Of a DNA stretch of 63,266 nucleotides, positions 17,129 through 63,266 are shown one piece after another. The stretch spans positions 1 to 63,266 of IMG/VR virus record IMGVR_UViG_3300045970_000244; one strand, written 5' to 3'. How positions within the stretch are numbered: the stretch's first letter is position 1; each line of letters opens with the position of its first letter. The notes below the pieces were generated by a model, which searched no databases, was not told the DNA's origin, and saw only the letters and a list, made by a program, of their open reading frames with translations. Origin of the DNA: a virus. Taxonomy: Duplodnaviria; Caudoviricetes. Both the position numbers and the translations under genes were made by a program.

Positions 17129-17506
17129 TTATGCTTTCACGCCGTCACGGAGGAGCTTCACGGCAACAACGTCGCCAGAAACGCCCGCTTCGAGTGCGCG
17201 CGCATAGATATACGCGCCGGTTATGGCGACAATGAGCTTACCGTTGGCATCGCCCGAGAGCTGGTCATCGACCGCTACCGTGCCACCCAACAGCGCCTTG
17301 CTGACGCCTGATTCCATGATCTCCGCAGCTTCACCCGAGATGGGCTTGTTCTGCAGAATCCCATGTGCGCTTGCGCCGGCACCTGCCGACACGATCGACG
17401 GAACACCGCTCACCGCTGCCACTGTGACAGCCGTGAACTGCTTCGCCGAAAGGTCTGCACCTGCCGGGAGCACACCAAATTTACGGCCCGGAATTTCGTA
17501 AGCCAT
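17129..17506 (-). CDS. Capsid cement/decoration protein (DUF2190-like)
   Basis: AGADLSAKQF..V...GILQNKP..GEAA...ALEAG.SGD motif; directly before MCP. Confidence 0.8.
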   Translation of the reverse strand: MAYEIPGRKFGVLPAGADLSAKQFTAVTVAAVSGVPSIVSAGAGASAHGILQNKPISGEAAEIMESGVSKALLGGTVAVDDQLSGDANGKLIVAITGAYIYARALEAGVSGDVVAVKLLRDGVKA

Positions 17507-18708
17507 TAGATGCCTCCTTTACGGTTCTTCTGGTGTTCAGCGTACAGTTTGCGGCCTTCGTCAGAAGTGATGAAGTCCGTGTACGCCTGTTCTTTTGAGA
17601 TCGTTCCACCAGACTTCTTGACGATTCCGTCAACGGCGGCGTCGATCTTGCCCGAGATGTCAGCGCCGGCATTGCCAGTCTGATCCGAGCCAGTTTCCTC
17701 GAACAGCTTGCCCTTCTCGGCTTGCTTGTCCAAGGCTTCGAACTGTTTGCACACGCGGTCAAAATCCTCTTTACCGGCTTTGTCGGCCAGTTTCAGGGTC
17801 TTGACGAGCTCTGCTTTGTCCAGAGCGATGTGCTTGAATTCCTCAGCTTTCGCCACGATTTCTTTCTCGCGACCCGAGGCTTTGAGCTCGGTGATCTCTT
17901 TTTCCAGACTTGCGGCCTTGGTTACCGCTTCCATCTGGGTCTTGAAGATCGCTTCGACTTCAGGGCGGAGCTTCTCAGGAACCGCCGCGAGGTCGATGGT
18001 TCCATCAGACTTCATGATGATTCCCATATCTCCCTCCCCTTCTTTCTTTACAGGTTCAGTTGTTTTGCCGTCGGTCTTAGCAATCCGTGCCTCAGCGTCG
18101 GGATAACCCTTGCCTAGTTTCCGAACATGGGACTTGACGGCTTTCATGTAAGCGTCCATGCCTGCGGAATGAGCGGATTCCTTCTCCTCGTCCGACGCTT
18201 CGGGCAGTGAGCCCTCTACGCCAGCCTTGGAACCTTTGTCGACTTCCCCTTCGTCGCCCTCTTCTTCTTCTTCGTCTTCGGTGAGGCCGGCTTTGCCAGC
18301 GCCTTCCGTTCCGGGCTCGTCGTGGGGAGCGCCCTCGCTGATCCCGATGCTCTCAAGCACCTGATCGACGAGTTCGTCGGTAATTTCTTCTTTGAACGGG
18401 GCGAGAATACGCGCCACCGCTTTGAGGGCTGCCTGCGCCTGTGGGCTCAGGGCCGGGGCCGCTGCTGGGTTTGCTGCTGGCGCTCCGGCGGCCGGCGCTG
18501 GTTTCGTGGGGTCTACTGTGGGCATGGGAGCCTCCTTCGCTGTGGCAATGTAAGCCTTGAGAACAGCCTCAACCTTTGCCATTTGCTCGGGTGTGACGGA
18601 TTGAATGGCTTCGAGCGCCGACTTGAAGATGATGAACTTCTTCTTGTTCGCGCCTCGGGGCACCAAACTGACTTCGGCTGGTTCAAGACTGTGTAAACGT
18701 CGTATCAC
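17506..18708 (-). CDS. Scaffold protein with N-terminal EVSLV..GAN protease strand
   Basis: Acidic/coiled-coil body; N-terminus RRLHSLEPAEVSLVPRGANKKKF; many [IVL]xK motifs. Confidence 0.75.
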   Translation of the reverse strand: MIRRLHSLEPAEVSLVPRGANKKKFIIFKSALEAIQSVTPEQMAKVEAVLKAYIATAKEAPMPTVDPTKPAPAAGAPAANPAAAPALSPQAQAALKAVARILAPFKEEITDELVDQVLESIGISEGAPHDEPGTEGAGKAGLTEDEEEEEGDEGEVDKGSKAGVEGSLPEASDEEKESAHSAGMDAYMKAVKSHVRKLGKGYPDAEARIAKTDGKTTEPVKKEGEGDMGIIMKSDGTIDLAAVPEKLRPEVEAIFKTQMEAVTKAASLEKEITELKASGREKEIVAKAEEFKHIALDKAELVKTLKLADKAGKEDFDRVCKQFEALDKQAEKGKLFEETGSDQTGNAGADISGKIDAAVDGIVKKSGGTISKEQAYTDFITSDEGRKLYAEHQKNRKGGI

Positions 18709-22432: not shown

Positions 22433-23950
22433 TCAGACGTTCAGGGTCAGTTGCCGGGCCGCTGCTGCGCGCATGGCGGACTGTTGTTCCGTGTCACCTG
22501 TGGCGTTGGTCACTATCGGTGTCGCGGGCTGGCCGTTCACGGGAGTGGTGTCCCCTGAGTTTGCGCCTTGGGGCCGCTGTTTGTCGTCATACGGGATTTC
22601 AACCTGCTTGACGAACTCGTCGGTCGTCTTGCGCGGCGGTGCCACTACTTGGCTTACGGTGCGCAGAGGGTCGATCGGTTCCGGGAGCCCTGCAATCTTC
22701 ATCAGGTACTTCTCAAGCTCACCGTCAGTGGACGGGAACAGCGGATACCCGGCCGACGCCAACGACGAGATGTACGCGCCCAAGTCCTTCAGGTCGATGG
22801 TCTCAAGGTCGCCGTGCACGAGCGTTGGGTAGTCAGTCACCTCAAAGTCGTTCAACTCGAACAGACGCGGTATCGCAAACCGGTTGAACACGTCCGCGAT
22901 GATGTCGAGGAACGCGCCAATGGCCACACTGAACAGCTCGGTCTTGCTCGACTGGAGCGCGAACGAGCCCACGTTGCTGTGCCCGATCAGGATGAAGTCG
23001 GCCAGAGCCGTCATGGCGATGCGTTGGTCGTAACGCTGAATAATCTTGTCGGTGTCGAACTGACGTTGGCCGCCGGTGCTCAACAGCTTCAACTCATACA
23101 TCAGCTTGCCGTTGGTGTCGTAGGCCATGGGGAACACGATGCCCTCTTGTTCGTCGCGACGGATATTCGTGACGATCTCCTTCAGGTTCTGGAGGATCGC
23201 CTTCTGCCCGGCGTTCGCGCCGGATGACAGCAACTCAGGTGGAACCAGCGCCACGGGCAAGCCCGCAAGATCGCGCTCAATGCCGATGGCCTCGATGTTC
23301 TCGATGTTCTTCTTCATGTACCAAGGGCGGTACGCGCCACGCAGGATGCTGCGACCCTCGGGATTGTTCTTGTCGATGGCCGTGCGGAACAGGAGCATCT
23401 TCTCAATCGGGATCTCGGTCAGGTAGTAGTGCGGCGGGGCCAACTGCTGCACGCCCTTGATGCCGCCGTGATCGTCGAACAGCCAGCGGTAGATGGTGTC
23501 CTGTGAGCGGAGGGGAATCTTGCGCCAGCCAATGCGGCCGTCAGCGTGTTTTGACTTCATCCACCCGGGCCCGCTCTGCCCGCAGCGGCGCTTGTAAACG
23601 ATCTCGTGCGCGCTGTACCCGTACTGGAGCATGGTGAGGATTTCGCTAATCGTGTCGGTCCACGACTGCGACATATCGTTCATACAGCTTTCAAGAAAGT
23701 CCGCTGCCTCTTTGTCGTAAGGCTGCTCTGAGGCGGGCTTGGCTCGCCACTGAACTCCACGACAGAGCATGGTGATGGCGAACAGAACGGCGTTCACCGT
23801 GGGGTCGTTGTTGGCCATCTCTTTGTAGATGGCAACCCCTTTCCATCCGACTAATTCTCGAAGGAATTCCTCGTAGACGAACCCGGAGAACCTTTTGAGG
23901 CCGGAGGCTCCGACTTCTCTCATGTCAAGTATGCGAGTATCTTGTTCCAT
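22433..23950 (-). CDS. Portal protein (DUF935-like)
   Basis: YGYSAHEIVYK, NPEGRSILR.AY.PW, IGIERDL.G.P, IPRLFELN; follows terminase. Confidence 0.9.
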   Translation of the reverse strand: MEQDTRILDMREVGASGLKRFSGFVYEEFLRELVGWKGVAIYKEMANNDPTVNAVLFAITMLCRGVQWRAKPASEQPYDKEAADFLESCMNDMSQSWTDTISEILTMLQYGYSAHEIVYKRRCGQSGPGWMKSKHADGRIGWRKIPLRSQDTIYRWLFDDHGGIKGVQQLAPPHYYLTEIPIEKMLLFRTAIDKNNPEGRSILRGAYRPWYMKKNIENIEAIGIERDLAGLPVALVPPELLSSGANAGQKAILQNLKEIVTNIRRDEQEGIVFPMAYDTNGKLMYELKLLSTGGQRQFDTDKIIQRYDQRIAMTALADFILIGHSNVGSFALQSSKTELFSVAIGAFLDIIADVFNRFAIPRLFELNDFEVTDYPTLVHGDLETIDLKDLGAYISSLASAGYPLFPSTDGELEKYLMKIAGLPEPIDPLRTVSQVVAPPRKTTDEFVKQVEIPYDDKQRPQGANSGDTTPVNGQPATPIVTNATGDTEQQSAMRAAAARQLTLNV

Positions 23951-26026: not shown

Positions 26027-26100
26027 TTGTTTTTCCAATGTATCAGAGCTGGTTCAGCTTTCACACTGGATTGAATTTGCCGAGAGGTCAACCGATTACA

Positions 26101-26327
26101 CAGGGAAGAGGCGGGGACCGGTCAGAAGCATAACTGCCGATCCCCGTGCCCGAAGGCTCCCTAATGGCTGAGTTCAGTTTGCAAGAGCCGCCGACGTGAC
26201 GGAAGCCCTTGTGTCACATGACAGAAGGTTTTGTGTCAGTTCCGGGGCGGTAACTTCCGTGTAGGCCATTCCCCGGATGGATGAGCGACGTCAACCACTG
26301 AGTTCCGGCGCCCACTATAACCGAGCC
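26101..26327 (-). ncRNA. Candidate pseudoknotted structured RNA upstream of terS
   Basis: Nested long-range stems, a 9-bp pseudoknot, a cUUCGg hairpin and an upstream TATAAT; detailed in findings. Confidence 0.55.
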
Positions 26328-26330
26328 TAT

Positions 26331-26364
26331 ATTATAGTCCCCGGGGCTTGGTGCATTATTGCAC
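26331..26364 (-). promoter_or_regulatory. Putative late promoter -10 box with adjacent palindrome
   Basis: Perfect TATAAT (26336-26331) with no consensus -35; palindrome GTGCA-TTAT-TGCAC at 26351-26364. Confidence 0.45.
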
Positions 26365-26457
26365 TTTTGTTGCGGTTTTCTTGCGTTTTGCTTGGGCGAT
26401 ATACTGTTTAGATTAATGATTCTCAGGCGTTAACACTCTTATATCATAATATATATT

Positions 26458-37421: not shown

Positions 37422-38223
37422 TCAACCCGTTCCCTTTCGACGCCATGTGCTTTGCGGCGTAGTCCCACGAGTTCATGTTGCTTTGCGTCTGGTCAACTTG
37501 GTTTGCCTCCGAGCGCATCACGGGGCGGCCCCGAGCCCACTGTGTCCTCATCGCCTCGGCGTCGTGCAGGAGCAGCCCTATAGGGTGACACTTCTCAACG
37601 AAAAACGACTTATTGTGCTTCAGGTAAAAACTGACAACCTCGGGCGCCTCATTGCCGAGCCGCTTGCCGAGCTGTGCGATTTGCCCGTTCACCGTTGCAT
37701 TGCGCACGGGCTTGGTCTTGTACCGCTGGAAGTACGCACTCTGGTAAGAATCCCATATCGCGCGGTTCAGGGCTGTGGCAGGCGTTTGCTTGGCCTCGGG
37801 TTCTACAGGGCTTTCCCCTTCAAACATGGCTGATTGAGCCGGTCCTTCTTCATTTTGTTTGGGCAACAAGCGCCCCAGCTCATCGCGCGGGCGTTGGGCT
37901 GAAACCTTCCCACCTTTGGCTCCGGCCTTTCTGCGAATTTTGATAAGCTCCATGGCTTCGGCAAAATATTTCTCGCTGCCCTTGATGTAGATTCCTGTTT
38001 TACGCCGTTCGGCAAGTCCAACTTCAATGAGGCTGTCGCAAAGGCCAAACCGCGTCCAGTCCTCCTCTGAAATTAAGTCTCTCTCAGGAACCCAGAACCG
38101 CTTGGCGATTCGGAGGGCCTTAGCTATAACCCCGGCCGCTTTCTCCTCGTCATCACCCAAAATCCGCGTCAGTTTCTGAAACCGCCGGTCCTCCCAAAGA
38201 CCGTCGTCCAATAAGATAATCAT
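37408..38223 (-). CDS. Replication initiator (lambda O-like)
   Basis: N-terminal wHTH-like region, RRKAG.KGGK.S linker, C-terminal W..Y..AY..RY...PVRNA.VN domain. Confidence 0.75.
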   Translation of the reverse strand: MIILLDDGLWEDRRFQKLTRILGDDEEKAAGVIAKALRIAKRFWVPERDLISEEDWTRFGLCDSLIEVGLAERRKTGIYIKGSEKYFAEAMELIKIRRKAGAKGGKVSAQRPRDELGRLLPKQNEEGPAQSAMFEGESPVEPEAKQTPATALNRAIWDSYQSAYFQRYKTKPVRNATVNGQIAQLGKRLGNEAPEVVSFYLKHNKSFFVEKCHPIGLLLHDAEAMRTQWARGRPVMRSEANQVDQTQSNMNSWDYAAKHMASKGNGLNVDK

Positions 38224-38299
38224 CCCAAATCCCCCCTATGCCACTAAGCAAAGTGCCCTTCTGCTGGTGCTTCCTCGGGTTTTGCTTGGTCCCCTAAAT

Positions 38300-38645
38300 C
38301 TAAGCTGTAAAGTCGTTAAGGCTTGTTTTCCTTGGTAGTCGTTCCTCCTACCAAGGGGCCTTTTGTCTTTGCTGTTTCCCCGTTTTGGTGACACGTATCC
38401 TAACGAGGGAAAACCCCCAAGGCGACGCTCACCACGGCCGAGGACGGCCGCCGTGACACCTGTGCAAGTGACAGCCTGCACATGGTTCCGCGAGACTTGA
38501 CGGACGCTGCACGTCCGAACCCTCAGTGCTCTCGCAGAAAGGTCTTACGACCCCTCGCATCCACACTCGGCGCCGTGAGGTCCCTGTGGCGCCACTTCAA
38601 CTCTCCCCACGGTCGTTTGCATTACCCCTGAGAAAGCCTTACTGC
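38300..38645 (-). ncRNA. Candidate large structured RNA in the leader of the replication initiator
   Basis: At least 7 hairpins, an 8-bp closing helix and a pseudoknot; no convincing ORF; see findings. Confidence 0.55.
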
Positions 38646-38651
38646 CGGCGT

Positions 38652-38775
38652 AAAAAAAAATAACCCCTCTCAGACCTTTTACGGTCTGCACGGCCAAGTG
38701 CTTGCTTCGGTAGATTAATGGTTGTGGAAGCGGCCCGAGAGGGGTCGACACGCTGCCCTGTTCCCAGAGAGCGTG
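38652..38775 (-). ncRNA. Candidate four-way-junction small RNA / attenuator ending in U9
   Basis: GGAA tetraloop hairpin, 10-bp closing stem with three arms, then A(T)9. Confidence 0.5.
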
Positions 38776-38950
38776 CAAAATTGTTTTCTATCGACAAACT
38801 CATAATCTACCTTTTGCTCGCCAGTGCCTTGGCCGACCCACACAAACAAGCCGCTTTGTTTCGTTGAGGAAAGGTTTCGCTTATTTTTTACAGAAAAAAA
38901 AGGTTTTTTTTTGGCCAACGCCATTTTTTTTTCAAAGTCACAAATACAGC

Positions 38951-38980
38951 TTGCACTCCGATGGCTTACGGACGTAAGTT
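38951..38980 (+). promoter_or_regulatory. Sigma70-like promoter of parB1-radical SAM operon with palindromic operator
   Basis: TTGCAC-18-TAAGTT, ATG 7 nt later without SD (leaderless); CTTACG-GA-CGTAAG overlaps -10. Confidence 0.5.
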
Positions 38981-38987
38981 TTTTTGC

Positions 38988-39602
38988 ATGGAAGCCATAA
39001 AAGCAGAGAAAATCAAAATCGTGCCCCTGAAAGACCTCAAACCCAACCCGTTGAACCGCAACAAGCACCCGCCCGAGCAAATCGTCAGACTTATAGAGAT
39101 AATTCGCTACCAAGGGTTCCGCAACCCCATCGTCGTGAGCAACCGTTCCGGCTTGGTCGTGACTGGCCACGGTCGTCTGGAAGCCGCTAGGGCCATGGGT
39201 CTTGAGCGAGTGCCGGTGATTTTTCAGGACTACGAGGACGAGGATCAGGAGTACGCCCACGCCATCAGCGACAACGCCATCAGCATGTGGGCCGAGCTGG
39301 ACACAGCCGGAATCAACGAAGACCTCGCGCGCATGGGCCGCGAGTTCAGCCTTGAGCAGCTTGGTATGCGCAGTTTTACACAGGAGATCCCCGGGATGCC
39401 CGGCGGCGGCCACTCAGAGCTCCGCGACGACCTTCCGAATGTTGACATCCAAGGGTCCGTGAACAACCGCACTGAAATTTTGGTCATCACGTTTGCCGAC
39501 CCCGAAAAATACGCTGAGGTGCAACGCCAGTTGGGGCTCCGGCCCACACAACGCACCATCACCTATACCGAAATCGTCGACAAGTGGGAGCTGCCGACAT
39601 GA
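38988..39602 (+). CDS. ParB/Srx N-terminal domain protein (modification island)
   Basis: LKPNPLN.NKH..EQI..L...I...GF.NPIVV...VVTGHGRLEAA..MG...VPV...DN. Confidence 0.9.
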   Translation: MEAIKAEKIKIVPLKDLKPNPLNRNKHPPEQIVRLIEIIRYQGFRNPIVVSNRSGLVVTGHGRLEAARAMGLERVPVIFQDYEDEDQEYAHAISDNAISMWAELDTAGINEDLARMGREFSLEQLGMRSFTQEIPGMPGGGHSELRDDLPNVDIQGSVNNRTEILVITFADPEKYAEVQRQLGLRPTQRTITYTEIVDKWELPT

Positions 39603-40864
39603 GCGAGTACATGAGCCCGCGTTGGAGCGGTGAGGTAAGCGATTGCTCCATGCCTATGACTTTCGATACTTACGACCGCTGCACCTACGGGTGCCTGTAC
39701 TGCTTTGCGGTTTACCAGAAAATCAACAGCAAGGGCCCGAACTACTGGCTTGAGCAGCCTGACTTCGTGAACCCCGAACGCATCAAGGCGATGTTCCGGC
39801 TTGAAAAACCCACACAGTTCGAGAAGTACATCCGCGACCGGATGACCATGCAGTGGGGCGGCATGGCTGACCAGTTCGACGAGAACGAGCGCGAGCACGG
39901 CGTCACGCTGGAGCTCCTGAAGTTCTTCCGGGAGATCAAGTACCCGATCTGTTTTTCGACCAAGGCGACGTGGTTCACCAAGGACGACCGCTACATGTCG
40001 CTCATCAAGGACGCCGACCACTTCAACTTCAAGTTCAGTATTATCAACCTCGACCCGGTGCGGGCCGCCGTCATGGAGGAGCGCGTGGATTCCCCACAGG
40101 AACGCCTCGCGGCCATGAAGCGCCTGAACGACATCAACCCCAAGGGAGGCGTCACCCTCAGACTGCGGCCGTTCATCATCGGCCACACTGACCGGCGCGA
40201 CGAGTACCTTGACCTGATCCGTGCGGCGCACGCCTCTGGCGCGTCGGCCGTGACTACGGAGTTCTACTGTGTTGAGGCCCGACTGAAACCCTCTGAGCGG
40301 TGGCGCTACAACCGTGTGTCCGAGCTCTGCGGGTTCGACGTGTTCGAGTTCTACCAGAAGCACAGCACCGGCTCCGGCTACATGAGGCTCAATTATGAAG
40401 TCAAGAGGCCTTACGTCGACAAGATGAAGGCCCTCTGCGACCAACTCGGGATGCGCTTTTACGTCAGCGATGCCCACCACAAAGAGAAGTGCTCGAACGG
40501 CTCCTGCTGTGGCCTTCCTCCGTCATGGAATTACTCACGAGGCCAGTTCACCGAGGCCCTGCTGATCGCCAAAGAGAAGGGAACCGTGCGCTGGTCTGAC
40601 ATCAGCGGCAAGATGGACCACCTCAAGCAGATCAATTACGCCCGGGCCGAGGGCTTCAATACGGCGAACGTCATGAACCGAGCCACGCGCGGCCGGCAAA
40701 CCCTGTACGATTATTTGCAAGAAATCTGGAACACGCCGAACAACCTGAAGTCACCGTACAAGTACTTCGGCGGAATCATGAACCCAACGGGCACGGACGA
40801 AAATGGCGACGTGATTTACGAGTACCGGCCTAAGCCCTGTCCTTCATCAACTCAGCCAGAATAA
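39599..40864 (+). CDS. Radical SAM enzyme (thymidine-hypermodification isomerase-like)
   Basis: CTYGCLYC (CxxxCxxC); extra CSNGSCCG cluster; ATGA-coupled to ParB gene. Confidence 0.85.
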   Translation: MSEYMSPRWSGEVSDCSMPMTFDTYDRCTYGCLYCFAVYQKINSKGPNYWLEQPDFVNPERIKAMFRLEKPTQFEKYIRDRMTMQWGGMADQFDENEREHGVTLELLKFFREIKYPICFSTKATWFTKDDRYMSLIKDADHFNFKFSIINLDPVRAAVMEERVDSPQERLAAMKRLNDINPKGGVTLRLRPFIIGHTDRRDEYLDLIRAAHASGASAVTTEFYCVEARLKPSERWRYNRVSELCGFDVFEFYQKHSTGSGYMRLNYEVKRPYVDKMKALCDQLGMRFYVSDAHHKEKCSNGSCCGLPPSWNYSRGQFTEALLIAKEKGTVRWSDISGKMDHLKQINYARAEGFNTANVMNRATRGRQTLYDYLQEIWNTPNNLKSPYKYFGGIMNPTGTDENGDVIYEYRPKPCPSSTQPE

Positions 40865-41384
40865 ACCCCGCCGCGTTACTGATGTCCGCCTGACACTCGT
40901 TGGTGAGCTGGTGGACGTCTTCAGGGTTCAAGTTTTTCTTGATGTTGGAGATCTTCGTTTTGCGCCCCTTGAGAAAGGTTTCGGTCTGGGTATCGTTCCG
41001 GGCTTTGTGGCGCGCGGCTTTGGTTTCTTCCGTGCACTCCAACACGAACACCTTGATATCCAGTCTTTCGGCACACCAGCTTAGAAAGCTCAGATTGCCG
41101 AGCCGGTCTCCTTCAAAGAAGATGTTCCACTCGCGCGAATTGAATATGAGCTGGTCGATGTAGAGCTGCACCTGCGGCTGGGCCGCCATGCTGAACTTGT
41201 CCGTGCCGCAAAACGTGTCGCCGTCGTTGTAGAACCCGAGAACGATGATCTTCTCGTCCATGTGTTTCGTTCCGTGAACCAAGCCGCTCTTGAAGGGCAT
41301 CCCGGGCGATAACCGGCGCATCATCTCGCGTACGATGGTTGTTTTACCGGAGGCGGGCTCACCAATCATAGCAACAATTTTCAT
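40830..41384 (-). CDS. P-loop kinase, putative 5-hydroxymethyluracil-DNA kinase
   Basis: GEPASGKTT Walker A; LG.Y....F.GTD..SM..QP, FEGDRL, R...R.D.Q...FL.GR.TK motifs; adjacent to transferase. Confidence 0.75.
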   Translation of the reverse strand: MKIVAMIGEPASGKTTIVREMMRRLSPGMPFKSGLVHGTKHMDEKIIVLGFYNDGDTFCGTDKFSMAAQPQVQLYIDQLIFNSREWNIFFEGDRLGNLSFLSWCAERLDIKVFVLECTEETKAARHKARNDTQTETFLKGRKTKISNIKKNLNPEDVHQLTNECQADISNAAGFILAELMKDRA

Positions 41385-42520
41385 GTGTCAATCTCCTTGT
41401 TGAAGTCGTTTTCAAAACAGGGCCAGTCCCGGTGCATCATGATGACTTGCCCGGTCAGGCGATAGTGGTTCTGTTTGCGTGGGACCAAACCCGGGTCGCG
41501 CGGGTTGTCCTCAATCCGAAGGTGCGGCGGTAAGTACCAGCGGCGCGCGTCCCAGAACAGGCTGAAGTCCTCAGCGCCGGCCCAAGCCTCCTCGGCGGTC
41601 TTTATCCGGTTGTAAAACATGTCCATGTAGACGTTCGGGTACCGGCGGTTTTCGCGGTGCCAGCTCTTGTAACAGCACAGGGTTGATTCCAGCGTGAAGT
41701 ACCCGACGTCGCGCTCATCGATGTCCGGGTTGCCGGTCAGGCGCATTCGCGCGGCGTTCAGGAGCAGGTGCCCCTCGGCCTTGAGCCAGTCGATGATCTC
41801 TTTGTTGTAACCACGGAAGGCCGGATTCAGCGTGTCGTGCCAGTCGAGGTCGTCGCGGCCGTTGACCTTACACAGCCCGTTACGGTGAGACTTTGAGCCG
41901 TCGATGTCGTCCAGAAAGAGTTGGTCGCAGTCGATGTTCAGGCCCATGATGCGCAAGTACTCAAGATAGGAAAACGTCGAGAGCCGGCCGAACAACTCGA
42001 ACCCCATGACGTGCCGCCACACACGGCGGAAGTTCTCGTCCTCGTCGGCGGTGTTTGCGAGCTCGCCCTCGAATAATTCTGTTTGACTTTTGCCGCGCAA
42101 GTTCAGCTTGTAGCTCATCACACACTTCTCAAATTGGTTCTTGACATAGCGGCGGTCAGTGTCCCACCCGAGCTTTGGGTAATTCTCACGGAACCAGCGC
42201 GAGAGCTTGTCGATGTTCAGCACCTTGAAGTCAGGGAACCGCTTGAAGATCGTCCAAGTGGTGACGGCGTGCTGGCACAGCCCGTTGATGTACGCGAACC
42301 AGTACCGCTGCTCCTTGTCGAGTTTCTGCGTCTCCACGATGTACGGCATCATCTGGTACACGGCGCCCGGGTGAGATCGGTACTTCAGGTGGAACTCGTA
42401 AAAACGTAAGAACGTCTCTCTTCGGTACTCTGGGAGGCGAAAGTCCATCCCCTTCTCAAGTTCCGTGACCTCGTGCGGGGCGCCACGTCCGGCGCTGTGA
42501 GGGCTACTTTGGTTGAACAT
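41381..42520 (-). CDS. Amino acid:DNA transferase (aG/PT-pyrophosphorylase clade 2 family)
   Basis: DFRLPEYRRE.F..FY.FHLKY.SHPG.VY, WDTDRRY, FGRLSTFSYLEYL, GSKSHRNGL, FTLESTLC.YKSWHR..RRYPNVY. Confidence 0.85.
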   Translation of the reverse strand: MFNQSSPHSAGRGAPHEVTELEKGMDFRLPEYRRETFLRFYEFHLKYRSHPGAVYQMMPYIVETQKLDKEQRYWFAYINGLCQHAVTTWTIFKRFPDFKVLNIDKLSRWFRENYPKLGWDTDRRYVKNQFEKCVMSYKLNLRGKSQTELFEGELANTADEDENFRRVWRHVMGFELFGRLSTFSYLEYLRIMGLNIDCDQLFLDDIDGSKSHRNGLCKVNGRDDLDWHDTLNPAFRGYNKEIIDWLKAEGHLLLNAARMRLTGNPDIDERDVGYFTLESTLCCYKSWHRENRRYPNVYMDMFYNRIKTAEEAWAGAEDFSLFWDARRWYLPPHLRIEDNPRDPGLVPRKQNHYRLTGQVIMMHRDWPCFENDFNKEIDT

Positions 42521-43601
42521 ATTCGTTGATCCTCGTAGGGAAGGCACCAAGCCTCGGAGCAAGCAGGGCACGCATGTTCTCGGCGCGGGGTTTGGACCCG
42601 ACGATCCAGAACACGCTTTTGTGGTTGAGGAGGGCCGGAAGTTTTTCGCAGACGTAGGTCATCATTTTGCCTTCATACGTCGGGTGAAACTCGATCCCCT
42701 TGTAGGAAAACGGCACCTCGGTCTGGTAGTCGACGTACCCAGTGGTGTGCAGGTCATGGTGGATCAGCTCGTAAAGGGGCTCGTCCACGGTGGCTTCATA
42801 CTCAGATTGCACGTCAGGGTGTGAAATATAGTCGCGCTTGAACAGCCGGGTCGGGAGGCCCGCCACCCGCGAGATGATCTCAAGGCGCTCCTCGATCAAC
42901 TGGAGCTTGGGCGGCCCGATGCCGATCAGGTACACGCGTTTCAGGTTCTTCGGCCGAAAGCGCGCGAGCCCGTAAAGAATGCTCACCGTCGAATTGCATG
43001 AGCCAGACGGGATGACCAGAGTTTCCATGTCGTCAGGCAGGTTACGAACCTGTTCAGAACCAATGAAGTGAAACCGCTCGATCCGCCCGCCCGGGTGGCT
43101 ATGGTGGTCAAGTGTGATGCCGTACTCAAGGTAAAAGTATTGTGAGAGCTCGGGGTCGGTTTCCTTGAGGTCGCGCACCTTCTTTTGCAGAACGGGGTTG
43201 TAGGCGATGTTCGGGTTGATGGCAAACCGGGCTCCGAACCACGTGGCCATGGCGACGTTCTCGTGCCGGATGGCGGCGTCGGTGTTCGTGGCGCCGATGA
43301 CGTGCAAGCTCTTGAGCCCATAGTGTGCCGCGATTGCCGAGCCCATCGGGAGCTGCGGTGACTTCACGGAGGTGCCGGAGATCATTCCCACGGCGCCGGG
43401 CTCCTTCAGGTACTCGGTCACGAGCCAGATACACTGCCGTAACTTGCTGCCGTTGATGCCGCCGTAGCCCAGAGGAGCGAATTTGTCCTCCCGCTTGAAT
43501 CGGAGGTTGCCAACCCCTTCAACCGGAGTGAGGTCGAAAATACGCTCCTCCCAGCGGGATTCTGAGCGATCAAGACTGAGTGTCTGGAAGATTGTTTCCA
43601 C
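42504..43601 (-). CDS. Fold-type II PLP-dependent enzyme (putative DNA amino-acid decarboxylase)
   Basis: TPVE...FKRED.F...GGINGSKLRQ (PLP Lys), PSGSCNS, HPTYEGK, FWIVG; start re-set to GTG 43601. Confidence 0.85.
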   Translation of the reverse strand: METIFQTLSLDRSESRWEERIFDLTPVEGVGNLRFKREDKFAPLGYGGINGSKLRQCIWLVTEYLKEPGAVGMISGTSVKSPQLPMGSAIAAHYGLKSLHVIGATNTDAAIRHENVAMATWFGARFAINPNIAYNPVLQKKVRDLKETDPELSQYFYLEYGITLDHHSHPGGRIERFHFIGSEQVRNLPDDMETLVIPSGSCNSTVSILYGLARFRPKNLKRVYLIGIGPPKLQLIEERLEIISRVAGLPTRLFKRDYISHPDVQSEYEATVDEPLYELIHHDLHTTGYVDYQTEVPFSYKGIEFHPTYEGKMMTYVCEKLPALLNHKSVFWIVGSKPRAENMRALLAPRLGAFPTRINEYVQPK

Positions 43602-44475
43602 ACTTCTCCCAAAGAGGATCGCCGGTTTTGCGGCGCTTGGCTTGCTCAAGCTCCTCTTGCGCAGATTTGCAGCGAATCATGGCCTCGCGATAGTAGTAAA
43701 CGATAGTACAGCGTTGGGCGTCGGGCGTGAGCGGTACGATCTGCGTGTTGCCGTGCCACTCGTGAGGGTCGAACAACAGGAGGTCATAAGTGTCGAGCTT
43801 GACGGCAATTCGCCAGTTGGGCAGCACGAGGTCACCGCCCTTGTAAGCGCCCTGCCTGATGGCCGAGATGCAACTGAACCCTTGGGCGAGGTCACCGGCG
43901 TCTTTGTGGCAAGCCGTTCTGAAGTTCTTGTTCACCGTCATGGTGGTGAAGGCCGTGTCAGGAATCAAGAAGTCAGGGGCCGTCCGCCGTGCGTAGTCCT
44001 TCTGGTACTCGTACCGGTCGGGAACGTGCTCGGCAAAGAGGCGGTCTACCTGTTTGACCATCGGCATCAGGGCGTTGAACTTCTCCGGGTGCTGAAGGTT
44101 CCAAGCACAGGCCCGGCAGTAAGGCATCCTGACGGTGCGCTCAAAATAACCGATGATTCCAGAGTACACGCCCCAACCCTTCGGCACGCGCTGGGTCTGC
44201 GACCGGGTGCCGTCTTTGCGCATCCGGCCCTCGCTCTCAATGCCGGCGGCCGTGCCACGGTTGTCGGAGTTCTCGTAGTACCCGTGAAGCACAGACCATG
44301 CGTTCTGAACCAGCAGCGGTGAGAGGGCTTGTTTCAGGAGTACGGCCAGAGGCGAACCATCGGGGCGCTCGACGCGCGTGGTTTCAGTGAGCAGGACGTC
44401 GTAGTCCCGCTCGTCCACGAACCTCATTCCCCAATCTTCGCTATTGGGCTTTGACGGTAGCCTTATGAGCTTCAC
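43570..44475 (-). CDS. TET/JBP-family 2-oxoglutarate/Fe(II) dioxygenase
   Basis: FTT.TVNKNFRTACHKDAGD (HxD), DPHEWHGNT (distal His), R.TIV.Y.RE (2OG Arg); SGIIGYFER...PYCR. Confidence 0.9.
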   Translation of the reverse strand: MKLIRLPSKPNSEDWGMRFVDERDYDVLLTETTRVERPDGSPLAVLLKQALSPLLVQNAWSVLHGYYENSDNRGTAAGIESEGRMRKDGTRSQTQRVPKGWGVYSGIIGYFERTVRMPYCRACAWNLQHPEKFNALMPMVKQVDRLFAEHVPDRYEYQKDYARRTAPDFLIPDTAFTTMTVNKNFRTACHKDAGDLAQGFSCISAIRQGAYKGGDLVLPNWRIAVKLDTYDLLLFDPHEWHGNTQIVPLTPDAQRCTIVYYYREAMIRCKSAQEELEQAKRRKTGDPLWEKCGNNLPDTQS

Positions 44476-45190
44476 GCACTATCCCCAACAGAGTGTCCGA
44501 TATATTGTCCGTGCCGCGCACGGTTTGCAACGCTTCGACCATTGAAACGAAGTCCACGTAATCGTCCATCGTGAAAAACAACTGAAGCTGTTTAACCTGC
44601 GTGGAGCCAGAGGCCATAGTTTTTTCTGGCATCATTCCGGTGTTCGGCGAACCGATGTCAGCCGGGGCCGGGATTGATCCGTCTGTCGGCGAAACAAACG
44701 TCGCGGCCAACTGCGAGAAGTCAACCTCCGGGAAGTGAAAGTTGGAAACCATGTCCTCGTAAGGGATGTCGTTCTCGCGCATAAACTGCGCCAACGAATC
44801 CTTGGTCAGTTTGCCGTACTGAGAGGCCGCCGCAAGCACCTTGCGCTTGGCTTCGGCATAGCTTTCGGCTTCGACCACAGCGACCGGGATTTCGGGAATC
44901 GTCCAGCCCTCGATGGCCTTCATCTGGTTCAGGGTGAACACGCGCTGGTGGCCGTCGATGATGAAAAACTTTCCTTTGTCCTTCCAGACGTGGACAACGA
45001 ACGAGAAACCGAAATCGCCGAGCGTCTTACGCAGGGCCTCGTACTCGGTGCGTTCAAGGTGTTTGAGTGAGCCCTGAAACGGCTCTAATTTTTCGAGCGG
45101 GAGGGTCTGGCTGCCCTTCACGGTGATCTCAAGGGTTTTGCCCGCGATTTTACGCCGGGGCGCGCGTTCTTTGGTCGTTTCTGTTGTCAT
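44441..45190 (-). CDS. Second ParB/Srx-like protein (modification island)
   Basis: LEPFQG.LK.L...Y..L..TL...GF...V.VW....IIDGHQR...L; GAGG RBS. Confidence 0.85.
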   Translation of the reverse strand: MTTETTKERAPRRKIAGKTLEITVKGSQTLPLEKLEPFQGSLKHLERTEYEALRKTLGDFGFSFVVHVWKDKGKFFIIDGHQRVFTLNQMKAIEGWTIPEIPVAVVEAESYAEAKRKVLAAASQYGKLTKDSLAQFMRENDIPYEDMVSNFHFPEVDFSQLAATFVSPTDGSIPAPADIGSPNTGMMPEKTMASGSTQVKQLQLFFTMDDYVDFVSMVEALQTVRGTDNISDTLLGIVREAHKATVKAQ

Positions 45191-45210
45191 GTTGATTTCC
45201 TCTCATCGCG

Positions 45211-45240
45211 ATCATAATGGGTTCCGAATGGATAGAGCAA
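45211..45240 (-). promoter_or_regulatory. Sigma70-like promoter of the parB2-TET-PLP-transferase-kinase operon
   Basis: TTGCTC-18-TATGAT on minus strand. Confidence 0.55.
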
Positions 45241-45264
45241 GGGGTTTTTTAAAGGTTTTTTTCC

Positions 45265-45293
45265 TTGGTTTTTTTAAAGGGCGGGCCTAAAAT
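45265..45293 (+). promoter_or_regulatory. Divergent sigma70-like promoter (leaderless start at 45300)
   Basis: TTGGTT-17-TAAAAT, ATG 6 nt downstream. Confidence 0.5.
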
Positions 45294-45299
45294 GAACCC

Positions 45300-45491
45300 A
45301 TGACCACCAACCAAATCTCAGACATGAAAACGCAGATAGCCAAGGCGACCCGGGCGCAACTTTTGAAGGCCCGCAGCATGAACGAGATGGTCTGCCTCGA
45401 TGCTGAACAGCATGCCGATGTACGGGCGGACGCCCTGATCTGGATTTCCAACATTGACACCGCGCTAAAGACACGGAAGGAGGGAATATGA
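45300..45491 (+). CDS. Hypothetical protein
   Basis: First gene of plus-strand block; ATGA coupling. Confidence 0.6.
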   Translation: MTTNQISDMKTQIAKATRAQLLKARSMNEMVCLDAEQHADVRADALIWISNIDTALKTRKEGI

Positions 45492-57455: not shown

Positions 57456-59944
57456 GCGACCTTCTCAATCTTCAGGACTGCCCCAGCGCGAATCGAAACG
57501 GCCGTGCCGGTTTCTGACCTGATTTGAATTGCCACGGTTCCAGCGACCGAAACCGTGAATGCACCACGCCCCGTATTGACGGCGTCCGCGTTGGCCGTTG
57601 CTGCAGCCGTCGATGTGACGTTGGTCGTCGCCGTGAGCTGTTGATATTGGAACGTAGCCGTTGTTCCATCGGCGGCCTGACCCAACCACCAACGACCAAA
57701 GCACTGTGACAACGTGGCCGTGACAGCACCAATACGAATGCCCCAACCGGTGGTAGTGTTCGTGGTCTGCATCAGAGCGTCGAACTCCCACTTGTAGACG
57801 CCGGGCTGAAGAATAGGTGTGATGAGTTCGGTGACGTTCGCATACGTCGTGGAAGTGGAGCTCTGGACGATTGTCGTGACTTCGGAAACGTTTCCGTCGA
57901 GCTTGGCCTTATCTGCTCCGCTCATTAACCCAGAGGCACCACCAGAGACCGCATCTGGGATGATGTCGCTCCCACCAGTGACGTGATTAGCGGCGTGAGC
58001 AGTTGGCGTGCGGGCGTCGGAGAGCCGTGAATCATTACCTTGGCAAACGGTGCTCACCGCCGATCCGAACGGAATTTCAGAGGCGAGGTGCTTTGAGGCC
58101 GCCGTCAACGAGGCATACCCGCTGGCCGCACCCTTGCTGGCGGCGTTTTCGGGAGTGAACCCGAGCGCGTTTTGCTTGGCGTTCCAAGTTGTTTTCTCGG
58201 TGTCAGTGACGAACCTGAATGATGCCGACTGAGTGATGTTCGCGGGATTCGTCGTATCTACGTTCAGGACGTTGCCCAGACCGATGGCGAGCCTGTCCAA
58301 GTTCTGCCACGTCTTATCTCCACGCCAATATTGGGCCGTGCTCCCTGCTGTGATCGAACCCTCTTTAGCGTTAAGGGCAGTCTGTGTGGCCGTGGATATG
58401 GGCTTACTGAGATCGGTCGTGTTATCGACGTTTCCGAGGCCAACAGAGGCTTTGTCGTGGGCTTGCCACGTCTTGTCGCCCCTCCAGTATTGCGCGGTTG
58501 TCCCGGCAGCGATGCTTGCCTCTTTGCCGTTCAACGCCGTTTGGGTCGCGGTGGAGATGGGCTTGTTCAGATCAGTGGTGTTGTCGACATTTGCAAGACC
58601 TACGGCCGTCTTATCGAGGAGCTGCCATGTTTTGTCCCCGCGCCAGTATTGGCTCGTGGCTCCCGCTGTGATGCTGGCTTCTTTCCCGTTGAGAGCTGTC
58701 TGGGTCGCTGTGGAAATTGGTTTGCTCAAGTCGCTCGTATTGTCGACGCTTCCCAAGCCAACGTCTGCCTTCGCGAGTACGACCGCGCCCGTTCTTCCGG
58801 CTACGCTCTGAACAGGTGCGGCGGCGGCTGCTCTTATGTTCGTGAAGTAAAGATTTGTGCTGCCCTCTGGGACGGCGTCAGTGCTGCCCGGGCTCGGCGA
58901 GATTTCGATATAGGCCGAACCGCTCCATCGATAAGTTTTGTTTGAGTCCAAGGCGACGTAGATTTTTGCGTTCTCACCGGTGCCCGGGAATGCCGCAAGG
59001 TTTGCGAACTCCAACACGTCATCAACGAACGACGGCAAGTAGATCGCCGCGATCTTCGAGGTTGCATCGAGCGGGCAAACCCCGCTGGCTGCGCCCTTCT
59101 CCGAGGCATTGAGCTTCAAGCTCAAAGCTGTCTGAGTTGCGGTCGAGACCGGCTTGTTCACGTCCGAAGTGTCGTCGACGTTTCCAAGGCCAACGGCGCT
59201 CTTGTCTAGAGTTTGCCAAGACTTATCACCGCGCCAATATTGAGAGGTGGTTCCGGCGACAATCGTCGGCTCTTTCGCATTCAGTGCGGTCTGGGTGGGC
59301 GTTGAAATCGGCTTACTGAGGTCGCTGGTGTTGTCGACGTTCGAAAGCCCAACTGCGGCCTTGTCTAAGGCGGCCCAGATCTTGTCCCCGCGCCAGTATT
59401 GAGCCGTGGTGCCCGAAGCGATGGCGGATTCTTTGCTGTTCCAAGTGGTTTTTTCGGCGTCCGAAACAAAACGGTGCGTGGCGTCTTGGGTGATGTTCGC
59501 CGGATTACTGGTGTCTAGGTTCGGCACGCTTGAGAGGCCGACGGCCGCTTTGTCCAAAGTCTGCCAGCTTTTGTCGCCGCGCCAATACTGGCTCGTCGTT
59601 CCGGCCGAGATCGCGGCCTCCTTCGCGTTCCAAGCCACCTTCTCGGCATCTGTCACAAAGCGATGTGTCAGGTCTTGTGTGATGTTCGACGGGTTTGTGG
59701 AATCTGCGTTCGGTACGTTGGAAAGACCGATGTCGGCCTTGGTGAGAACGACGTCCACGCTGAGGGCGTGACCGTTGACCGTCCGCGAGACAGGCACGGC
59801 TTCGGTCGAGGCCAAGAACTCAACCTCAGCAAGAGTGTCGCCGTCTTTGCGCCAAAAGGTTCCGTCCGGCTTAATGTAGAGGCCGACGGTGCCAGCCGGA
59901 GGATTGATTGTTGGGACTTCTTTTGTCAAAACTAGATCGCTCAT
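57452..59944 (-). CDS. Long tail fibre with QYWRGDK repeats
   Basis: Six KE..I..G.T.QYWRGDK.W...DK..VGL.NV units; LPSFVDDVLE...YRWSGSAY.EI knob motif. Confidence 0.9.
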   Translation of the reverse strand: MSDLVLTKEVPTINPPAGTVGLYIKPDGTFWRKDGDTLAEVEFLASTEAVPVSRTVNGHALSVDVVLTKADIGLSNVPNADSTNPSNITQDLTHRFVTDAEKVAWNAKEAAISAGTTSQYWRGDKSWQTLDKAAVGLSSVPNLDTSNPANITQDATHRFVSDAEKTTWNSKESAIASGTTAQYWRGDKIWAALDKAAVGLSNVDNTSDLSKPISTPTQTALNAKEPTIVAGTTSQYWRGDKSWQTLDKSAVGLGNVDDTSDVNKPVSTATQTALSLKLNASEKGAASGVCPLDATSKIAAIYLPSFVDDVLEFANLAAFPGTGENAKIYVALDSNKTYRWSGSAYIEISPSPGSTDAVPEGSTNLYFTNIRAAAAAPVQSVAGRTGAVVLAKADVGLGSVDNTSDLSKPISTATQTALNGKEASITAGATSQYWRGDKTWQLLDKTAVGLANVDNTTDLNKPISTATQTALNGKEASIAAGTTAQYWRGDKTWQAHDKASVGLGNVDNTTDLSKPISTATQTALNAKEGSITAGSTAQYWRGDKTWQNLDRLAIGLGNVLNVDTTNPANITQSASFRFVTDTEKTTWNAKQNALGFTPENAASKGAASGYASLTAASKHLASEIPFGSAVSTVCQGNDSRLSDARTPTAHAANHVTGGSDIIPDAVSGGASGLMSGADKAKLDGNVSEVTTIVQSSTSTTYANVTELITPILQPGVYKWEFDALMQTTNTTTGWGIRIGAVTATLSQCFGRWWLGQAADGTTATFQYQQLTATTNVTSTAAATANADAVNTGRGAFTVSVAGTVAIQIRSETGTAVSIRAGAVLKIEKVA

Positions 59945-63139: not shown

Positions 63140-63266
63140 TAGATGTAGTTTGTCGCGCTTGTCGGATACGTCGCCTTAATGACTAGCCCATATGTGACAC
63201 CAGAAGTGATTGTGACATTGGCGAAGTTAAAGTAAATCCACTGCCCACCACTTGTTGAGCCACCGG
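63140..63266. repeat. Terminal direct repeat copy 2 (assembly circularisation overlap)
   Basis: Exact copy of 1-127; unique genome length is 63,139 bp. Confidence 0.95.

Follow-up and report, generated by a model that had tools for sequence, protein, structure and literature searches.

The 346-nt stretch at 38300-38645 is the GC-rich middle of a 737-nt divergent region, and the interpretation we prefer, held tentatively and with a chance short of even, is that it is a G-rich chain of seven hairpins within a long untranslated 5' leader, transcribed leftward, at the head of a replication/recombination operon. The original prediction had offered a replication-control RNA, a structured origin element or a new class of large non-coding RNA. 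Of these three options, the evidence speaks least for a large RNA of a new class, and a cis-acting leader is the most plausible reading.

The window (the whole stretch of DNA that was analysed) is a complete phage genome of 63,266 bp that carries direct repeats at its ends (bases 1-127 are the same as 63140-63266). It comes from a pond metagenome; a DNA run, the single sequencing run found to contain it, is possibly its source sample. Genes for TerL, portal, major head protein and tape measure, all on the minus strand, mark it as a tailed phage. A gene set at 38961-45190 encodes two ParB_N proteins, a radical SAM protein, a P-loop nucleotide kinase 3, an amino-acid:DNA transferase (PF18724, E 1.1e-23) and members of phrog_3650 and phrog_24024; by its domain matches this is a thymidine hypermodification set. 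The best identity of TerL is 52% in IMG/VR and 48% in genomes, and the phage is without a close relative in these collections. Two further features were noted in this genome. A tail-fibre-like gene of 830 aa contains, at 58304-58728, 2.7 repeats of a 159-nt unit, of which a third copy, now diverged, lies at 59177-59451. An open reading frame of 788 aa at 18789-21155 matches head maturation proteases in its last 120 to 150 or so residues only, the N-terminal 640 being without a match.

The gene-free gap at 38224-38960 is a divergent control region: a putative initiator gene leaves it on the minus strand and a ParB-like gene on the plus strand (Table 1). The name initiator is an annotation-level one for a putative function. 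The C-terminal half of the protein matches phrog_11527 (E 1.5e-24) and, weakly, phrog_391, 'replication initiation O-like' (E 8.4e-4), and homologues of this half are annotated as replication initiation protein in phages of Ralstonia, Erwinia and Pseudomonas; there was no match to the protein in Pfam, NCBIfam or PDB. An SD-like G-run (38231-38236) lies just before its ATG. On the other side of the gap, the PHROG matches of the ParB_N gene are to ParB-like and methyltransferase N-terminal families.

Table 1. Coordinates of the features in and beside the divergent gap
Feature	Position	Strand	Description or basis
Putative replication initiator, 271 aa	37408..38223	-	First gene of leftward block
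Weakly structured segment with ribosome-binding region of initiator	38224..38316	-	Folding
Hairpin chain, seven local hairpins (H1-H7)	38317..38645	-	Folding and pair probabilities
H7	38318-38362	-	Predicted hairpin, perfect 9-bp stem
H6	38386-38434	-	Predicted hairpin
H5	38430-38455	-	Predicted hairpin
H4	38458-38486	-	Predicted hairpin
H3	38492-38524	-	Predicted hairpin
H2	38525-38567	-	Predicted hairpin, GUAA tetraloop (GNRA)
H1	38568-38594	-	Predicted hairpin
54-codon ATG ORF, AAGG 6 nt upstream (doubtful as a gene)	38639..38803	-	Crosses terminator-like stem
Terminator-like element	38650..38746	-	15-bp basal stem enclosing two small hairpins, then UUAUUUUUUUUU (U9)
Homopolymer runs of at least 8 nt	38652-38660 (U9 on minus strand), 38894-38901, 38904-38912, 38924-38932		Run count
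Stretch holding start of 54-codon ORF	38860-38747	-	Gap anatomy
AT-rich segment, 35% GC, A8/T9/T9 tracts	38861..38960		Composition and homopolymer runs
ParB_N-domain gene	38961..39602	+	PF02195, E 1.5e-7; first gene of rightward unit

The claim that the region holds no credible gene was upheld. Of the 11 ORFs of at least 30 aa that overlap the gap, none scores above the 11th percentile of the gene windows of the phage, and no conserved coding signal was found in codon scores or in protein and translated searches. Three minus-strand ORFs of the gap were tested and had no match in Pfam or PHROG. When gap ORFs were compared with 50,697 phage records by tblastn, there was either no match or one at E 0.5-0.7 only, and the best tblastx match of the gap to the upstream loci of relatives was at E 0.095. 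The 54-codon ORF that crosses the terminator-like stem is doubtful as a gene: its codon score of -0.09 is at the 5th percentile of gene windows, and it had no match in Pfam, PHROG or NCBIfam and no phage tblastn match at E ≤ 1. The gap is, as judged from codon usage and searches, non-coding. Both the low ORF scores and the lack of protein matches favour an untranslated leader.

The local hairpins of the original prediction are largely borne out by folding. All 19 of the strings that it quoted are present on the minus strand at the places given; CGGACG is among them, at 38517-38512 and not at 38516 as had been stated. Mean pair probabilities in the 361-nt fold were 0.92 for GGCGCC, 0.997 for GGUC/GACC, 0.99 for CGGACG, 0.996 for UGUGCA and 0.99 for CCUUGGUAG, and the same five hairpins (the last again formed by CCUUGGUAG) kept probabilities of 0.78 to 1.0 when folded in three other transcript contexts (38900-38200, 38760-38200 and 38650-38224). 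The proposed GGUGA/UCACC arm was recovered in part, with a pair probability of 0.57. The letters of CACGGC/GCCGUG are in place, but their pairing is superseded by a better register that gives a 7+3-bp hairpin of -19.1 kcal/mol.

The long-range architecture found no support in folding. The 8-bp helix that had been proposed to close the whole structure (38641-38634/38324-38317) has a probability of 0.05-0.10 in the 361-nt fold and of ≤ 0.002 in the three other contexts, the pairing of UUUCUCAG with CUGAGGG has a probability of 0.0 and that of the crossing helix is 0.05-0.08. With the closing helix enforced the energy is -141.6 rather than -144.8 kcal/mol, a cost of 3.2 kcal/mol. By an arithmetic estimate, about 0.9 perfect 8-nt complements are expected by chance within 345 nt, and the 3' strand of this helix has a rival 9-bp partner at 38852-38844. 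A closed multi-domain fold is thus predicted not to be thermodynamically favoured, and in these models 38317-38645 is better described as a chain of seven independent hairpins than as a single closed RNA of many domains.

The most telling structural point is the asymmetry between strands. On the minus strand the region reaches a minimum free energy (MFE) of -144.8 kcal/mol; the plus strand reaches -123.3. By GC-corrected MFE it comes 4th and 8th among 557 windows on the minus strand, versus 214th and 278th on the plus strand. H2, H3, H5 and H6 are each 4.7-10.5 kcal/mol more stable on the minus strand than on the plus strand, while H7 is equally stable on both; G-U pairs make up 15 of the 112 pairs of the MFE structure. 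The predicted folding is specific to the strand of the initiator, which favours the leader reading. So does composition. On the minus strand the hairpin chain has a GC content of 0.59 (G 0.34, C 0.25), in a stretch that is non-coding within a genome of 56% GC, and its C/G ratio of 0.74 falls in the lowest 4.8% of minus-strand windows.

How far the structure exceeds chance depends on the comparison. Against dinucleotide shuffles (100 for each strand), the minus-strand fold of the whole region has a z of -2.98 and the plus-strand fold one of -2.14. Two 340-nt windows on the minus strand gave z of -3.83 and -4.01 (36 shuffles), to be set against a mean of -0.54 (sd 1.32) for 29 control windows spaced evenly along the minus strand of this genome, a difference which favours a leader. 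Two of these 29 control windows fold as well, however, at z -3.45 and -4.04, and this counts against it. They are coding windows, at 23601-23940 and 17301-17640 respectively, and their strong folding could be mRNA structure or chance. When the hairpins were folded singly on the minus strand, four of the seven were more stable than all 200 of their shuffles (z -3.9 to -4.3) and the other three were no better than shuffles (z -1.1 to -2.0), values that are all biased upward by the choice of segments after folding. The region holds four hairpins of ≤ -17 kcal/mol, and 6.7% of the 350-nt windows of the genome hold at least four; its three hairpins of ≤ -19 kcal/mol are matched by 5.5% of windows. 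That some 5-7% of windows are as hairpin-rich again disfavours the leader reading. The region is moderately elevated in structure, yet it is not unique in its genome, and the structural signal alone separates it poorly from ordinary sequence of that genome.

The sequence on either side of the hairpin chain is informative. Upstream, the terminator-like element has an MFE of -43.8 kcal/mol, its structure makes up 42% of the ensemble and none of 200 shuffles was as stable. The hallmark of an intrinsic terminator, a GC-rich stem directly before a U-tract, is present in the sequence at 38746-38650, on the minus strand only, as a predicted structure. A simple-hairpin terminator scan did not flag it because the stem is branched. 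Downstream, no hairpin with a U-run was found on the minus strand between 38645 and the start codon, so that RNA entering this part would run into the initiator gene. Both this absence and the terminator-like stem and U9 upstream favour a leader. Finally, 38330-38224 has an MFE of -19.6 kcal/mol (z +1.08), a value equalled or bettered by 177 of 200 shuffles. These last 107 nt before the ATG are predicted to be an open ribosome-binding segment, which also favours the leader reading.

Only four homopolymer runs of at least 8 nt occur in the whole 63-kb genome and all of them are in the gap. The AT-rich segment next to the ParB-like gene is presumed to be the site of divergent promoters, curved DNA or both. 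No sigma-70-type promoter was recognised in the gap at the default or a relaxed threshold, which counts against a leader, with the proviso that the sigma-70 consensus may not be that of the host. The sequence CGCUCUCU at 38773-38766 resembles boxA by eye. The AAAGGTTT motif has 5 matches, versus 2.0 expected, and 6 of 100 shuffles also reach 5, so it is not counted as evidence. No tRNA or tmRNA gene was found in the whole window. Another divergent gap, at 45191-45300, contains phased T7 tracts and a unit, 'TTTTTTAAAGGT', that is repeated 2.9 times; it resembles the A/T tracts at 38880-38935.

From this arrangement we infer leftward transcription that would start in the AT-rich segment. Some of these transcripts would end at the U9 element and others would continue past it. 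Read-through RNA would carry a G-rich, C-poor and tightly folded leader, which would keep Rho and nucleases off the untranslated RNA until translation begins at the start of the initiator gene. The regulatory role of the leader might be protection or insulation of untranslated RNA or, alternatively, control of read-through. Termination at U9, if efficient, would mean that the hairpin stretch is rarely transcribed, a point against the leader reading.

Database searches gave no known RNA and no homologue of the stretch, and the lack of a homologue also weighs against a leader. The covariance models of Rfam 15 (4227 models) gave no match at gathering thresholds in the whole window. With permissive filters and E ≤ 10, there were five chance-level matches in 38100-39100 (10.7-21.1 bits, E 1.8-8.6, against gathering thresholds of 45-100). 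No homologue was found by blastn against 50,697 phage records. Neither blastn nor nhmmer matched the stretch to any of 174 loci, drawn from initiator relatives in IMG/VR and in metagenomes, from the loci of ParB and TerL and from three annotated phages, nor to any of 80 radical-SAM loci (best blastn match 20 nt, E 0.13). Single-sequence covariance models of H2-H5 (R1) and H6-H7 (R2) found only themselves among 254 loci and the window; the best non-self matches (E 0.076 and 0.077) were on the wrong strand and in GC-rich sequence. There is no second copy of the stretch in the genome by the same searches.

The phage itself offers few relatives for comparison. Among about 5.8 billion proteins, those similar to the initiator over most of its length are at most 41% identical (37-41% for the full-length relatives P0002, P0004-P0007 and P0009, which come from Logan, ENA and JGI assemblies), and a single-protein query found no relative of it among the viral contigs or genome contigs searched. 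An initiator alignment gave 74 IMG/VR loci and the best 80 of 156 metagenome loci. Only a few of these span the whole protein, at 32-39% identity (L002, L003/L097, L096 and L099-L101). Upstream of the full-length relatives are short gaps or small ORFs with no similarity to this gap. Initiator relatives usually lie within an operon or behind a short gap, without a long leader, which disfavours the leader reading. The nearest case of a divergent gap, in L002 (34% identity), is AT-rich, about 300 nt long and quite unlike the one described here.

Other marker proteins gave the same picture. ParB relatives comprise one locus (61% identity), which is not syntenic. TerL has 13 relatives in IMG/VR (44-52% identity) and three in genomes, in MAGs of three phyla (40-48% identity), from which no host can be assigned. 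Five TerL-relative records were searched in full; none matched the gap (best E 0.47) and the initiator was present only in L002. The radical-SAM protein has 207 IMG/VR relatives, unlike the initiator and TerL, for which there are few. Its best 80 are 42-58% identical, none of these 80 has the initiator nearby and none matches the gap.

Nearly as likely as a leader, and a real possibility, is that the structure is incidental. The gap would then be a spacer or a site of DNA-level control (operators, promoters of an unknown host, or the target of a sigma factor or antiterminator), with hairpins arising by chance in GC-rich, G-skewed sequence. The two background windows at z ≤ -3.45, the proportions of windows that match the region in hairpin number (6.7% and 5.5%), the three hairpins no better than shuffles and long-range helices at p ≤ 0.10 are all consistent with this, as are an empty Rfam search and the lack of a homologue in phage records or the 254 loci. 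Chance does less well in accounting for ranks of 4th and 8th of 557 on one strand only, for four of seven hairpins that beat every one of 200 shuffles and for a GC content of 59% kept without coding constraint.

A replication origin is an unlikely explanation for the gap. The AT tracts would be an unwinding element, and a G-rich structured transcript or DNA would activate the origin by an R-loop or by transcription. The gap adjoins the putative initiator gene, has all four of the long homopolymer runs of the genome and combines a segment of 35% GC with a G-rich minus-strand RNA; the cumulative GC-skew minimum is near 40-41 kb, where it is confounded by the switch in gene direction. However, repeats in the gap reach at most three copies, and 5, 12 and 12 of 20 shuffles equal or exceed those seen at three settings (three copies were obtained with 12 nt and 2 mismatches and with 14 nt and 3 mismatches, and 12 of 20 shuffles reach at least three in each case). 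There are no iterons in the initiator gene either. Three DnaA boxes (TTATCCACA, ≤ 1 mismatch) occur in the genome, where 7.0 are expected by chance, and none of them is in the gap. The asymmetry of the structure between strands is also unlike that of a DNA cruciform.

The leader reading can be extended to a new cis-acting RNA device in a phage with hypermodified DNA, which we regard as a long shot. The hairpin chain and branched terminator would together form a leader of about 420-650 nt that gates RNA polymerase into the 38-kb leftward block running from replication to structural genes, or that primes replication by an R-loop, and a related device would be present at 26039-26457.

The gap at 26039-26457 is the second-largest gene-free gap, lying ahead of the packaging and structural genes, and it is GC-rich and folded. 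Its plus strand, with a z of -2.49, heads the list of 557 windows by GC-corrected MFE; the z of its minus strand is -2.18. It contains a 22-nt tandem repeat at 26197-26238 and a TATAAT. A purine-rich box of 36 nt at 26395-26360 is shared, with 75% identity, with 38289-38254; its Smith-Waterman score of 27 is borderline when compared with shuffles (19.9 ± 2.2, maximum 30), and the box is not counted as evidence. The presence of a second large gap that is also GC-rich and folded favours the leader reading.

It is improbable that the region consists of decayed genes, in which case the minus-strand ORFs 38778-38545, 38566-38429 and 38481-38236 would be remnants of a gene of about 180 aa. These three ORFs tile the region in three frames, and in relatives the initiator is often immediately preceded by small genes. 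Against this, their codon scores are +0.04, -0.23 and -0.12, compared with a gene mean of +0.22, and the Pfam, PHROG, tblastn and tblastx searches described above gave no credible match.

It is very improbable that the 8-bp helix closes a free-standing large non-coding RNA that represents a new class. Its size, its seven helices with a GUAA tetraloop and the low cost of the closing helix (only 3.2 kcal/mol) are what such an RNA might be expected to show. Yet the helix is hardly populated in any context folded, no promoter or terminator of its own was recognised, and there was no homologue, second copy or Rfam match. The large ornate RNAs GOLLD, ROOL and OLE (PMC12286853) are likewise longer than 300 nt with many helices; they differ from the linear hairpin chain predicted here, which has no favoured closure, no Rfam hit and no family of homologues.

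Equally far-fetched is a plus-strand countertranscript for antisense copy control, running from a promoter-like site at 37940-37967 inside the initiator gene to H7 and its T-rich tail (38341-38369), since the plus strand, despite having one promoter-like and two overlapping terminator-like sites and an H7 as stable as on the minus strand, has these at chance counts (1 versus 0.6 expected and 2 versus 2.3 expected) and ranks only 214th to 278th of 557 in folding.

If the leader is functional, it would show RNA-level gating of a replication operon in a phage that carries amino-acid:DNA-transferase (hypermodified thymidine) genes. Among the structured leaders that precede replication genes in phages, it would also be an unusually long one. 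As an orphan in a singleton genome, the element cannot be generalised.

Several known systems can be compared with this region. Iteron-type origins are found upstream of rep genes, as in P1 oriR, F and pPS10. Here, too, an AT-rich tract lies beside an initiator gene in a large non-coding region, but there are no iterons beyond chance and no DnaA boxes in the gap. RNA II of ColE1 is a pre-primer that acts at an R-loop origin. The transcript proposed here would similarly be several hundred nucleotides long, hairpin-rich, G-rich and located by replication functions; in contrast to ColE1, the phage encodes a protein initiator, and no antisense partner and no sequence similarity to RNA II were found.

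The CI RNA of P4 and the C4 RNA of P1 and P7 are antisense leaders that act on the same transcript, and leaders of plasmid rep genes mask the ribosome-binding site by helices. As in these phages, an untranslated RNA that is predicted to be folded lies directly ahead of a phage replication gene. Here, however, the best leader-to-TIR duplex (-30.4 kcal/mol) is at chance level: 300 shuffled TIRs average -28.8 kcal/mol (sd 2.8), and 24.7% of them pair as well as the real one. The lack of pairing between leader and ribosome-binding site above chance disfavours the leader reading. A further difference is that the ribosome-binding segment is open in the predicted fold, and there is no Rfam match.

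Lambdoid phages have leaders that run from pR to tR1 before cII-O-P and from pR' to tR', the latter giving the 6S RNA, before the late genes. The region described here differs in that its predicted stem is branched and followed by a further 420 nt of predicted folded leader. The likeness would lie in a short promoter-proximal segment ending in a stem and a U-tract, beyond which the same strand carries a long block of genes, with an O-like initiator, for whose expression read-through would be needed.
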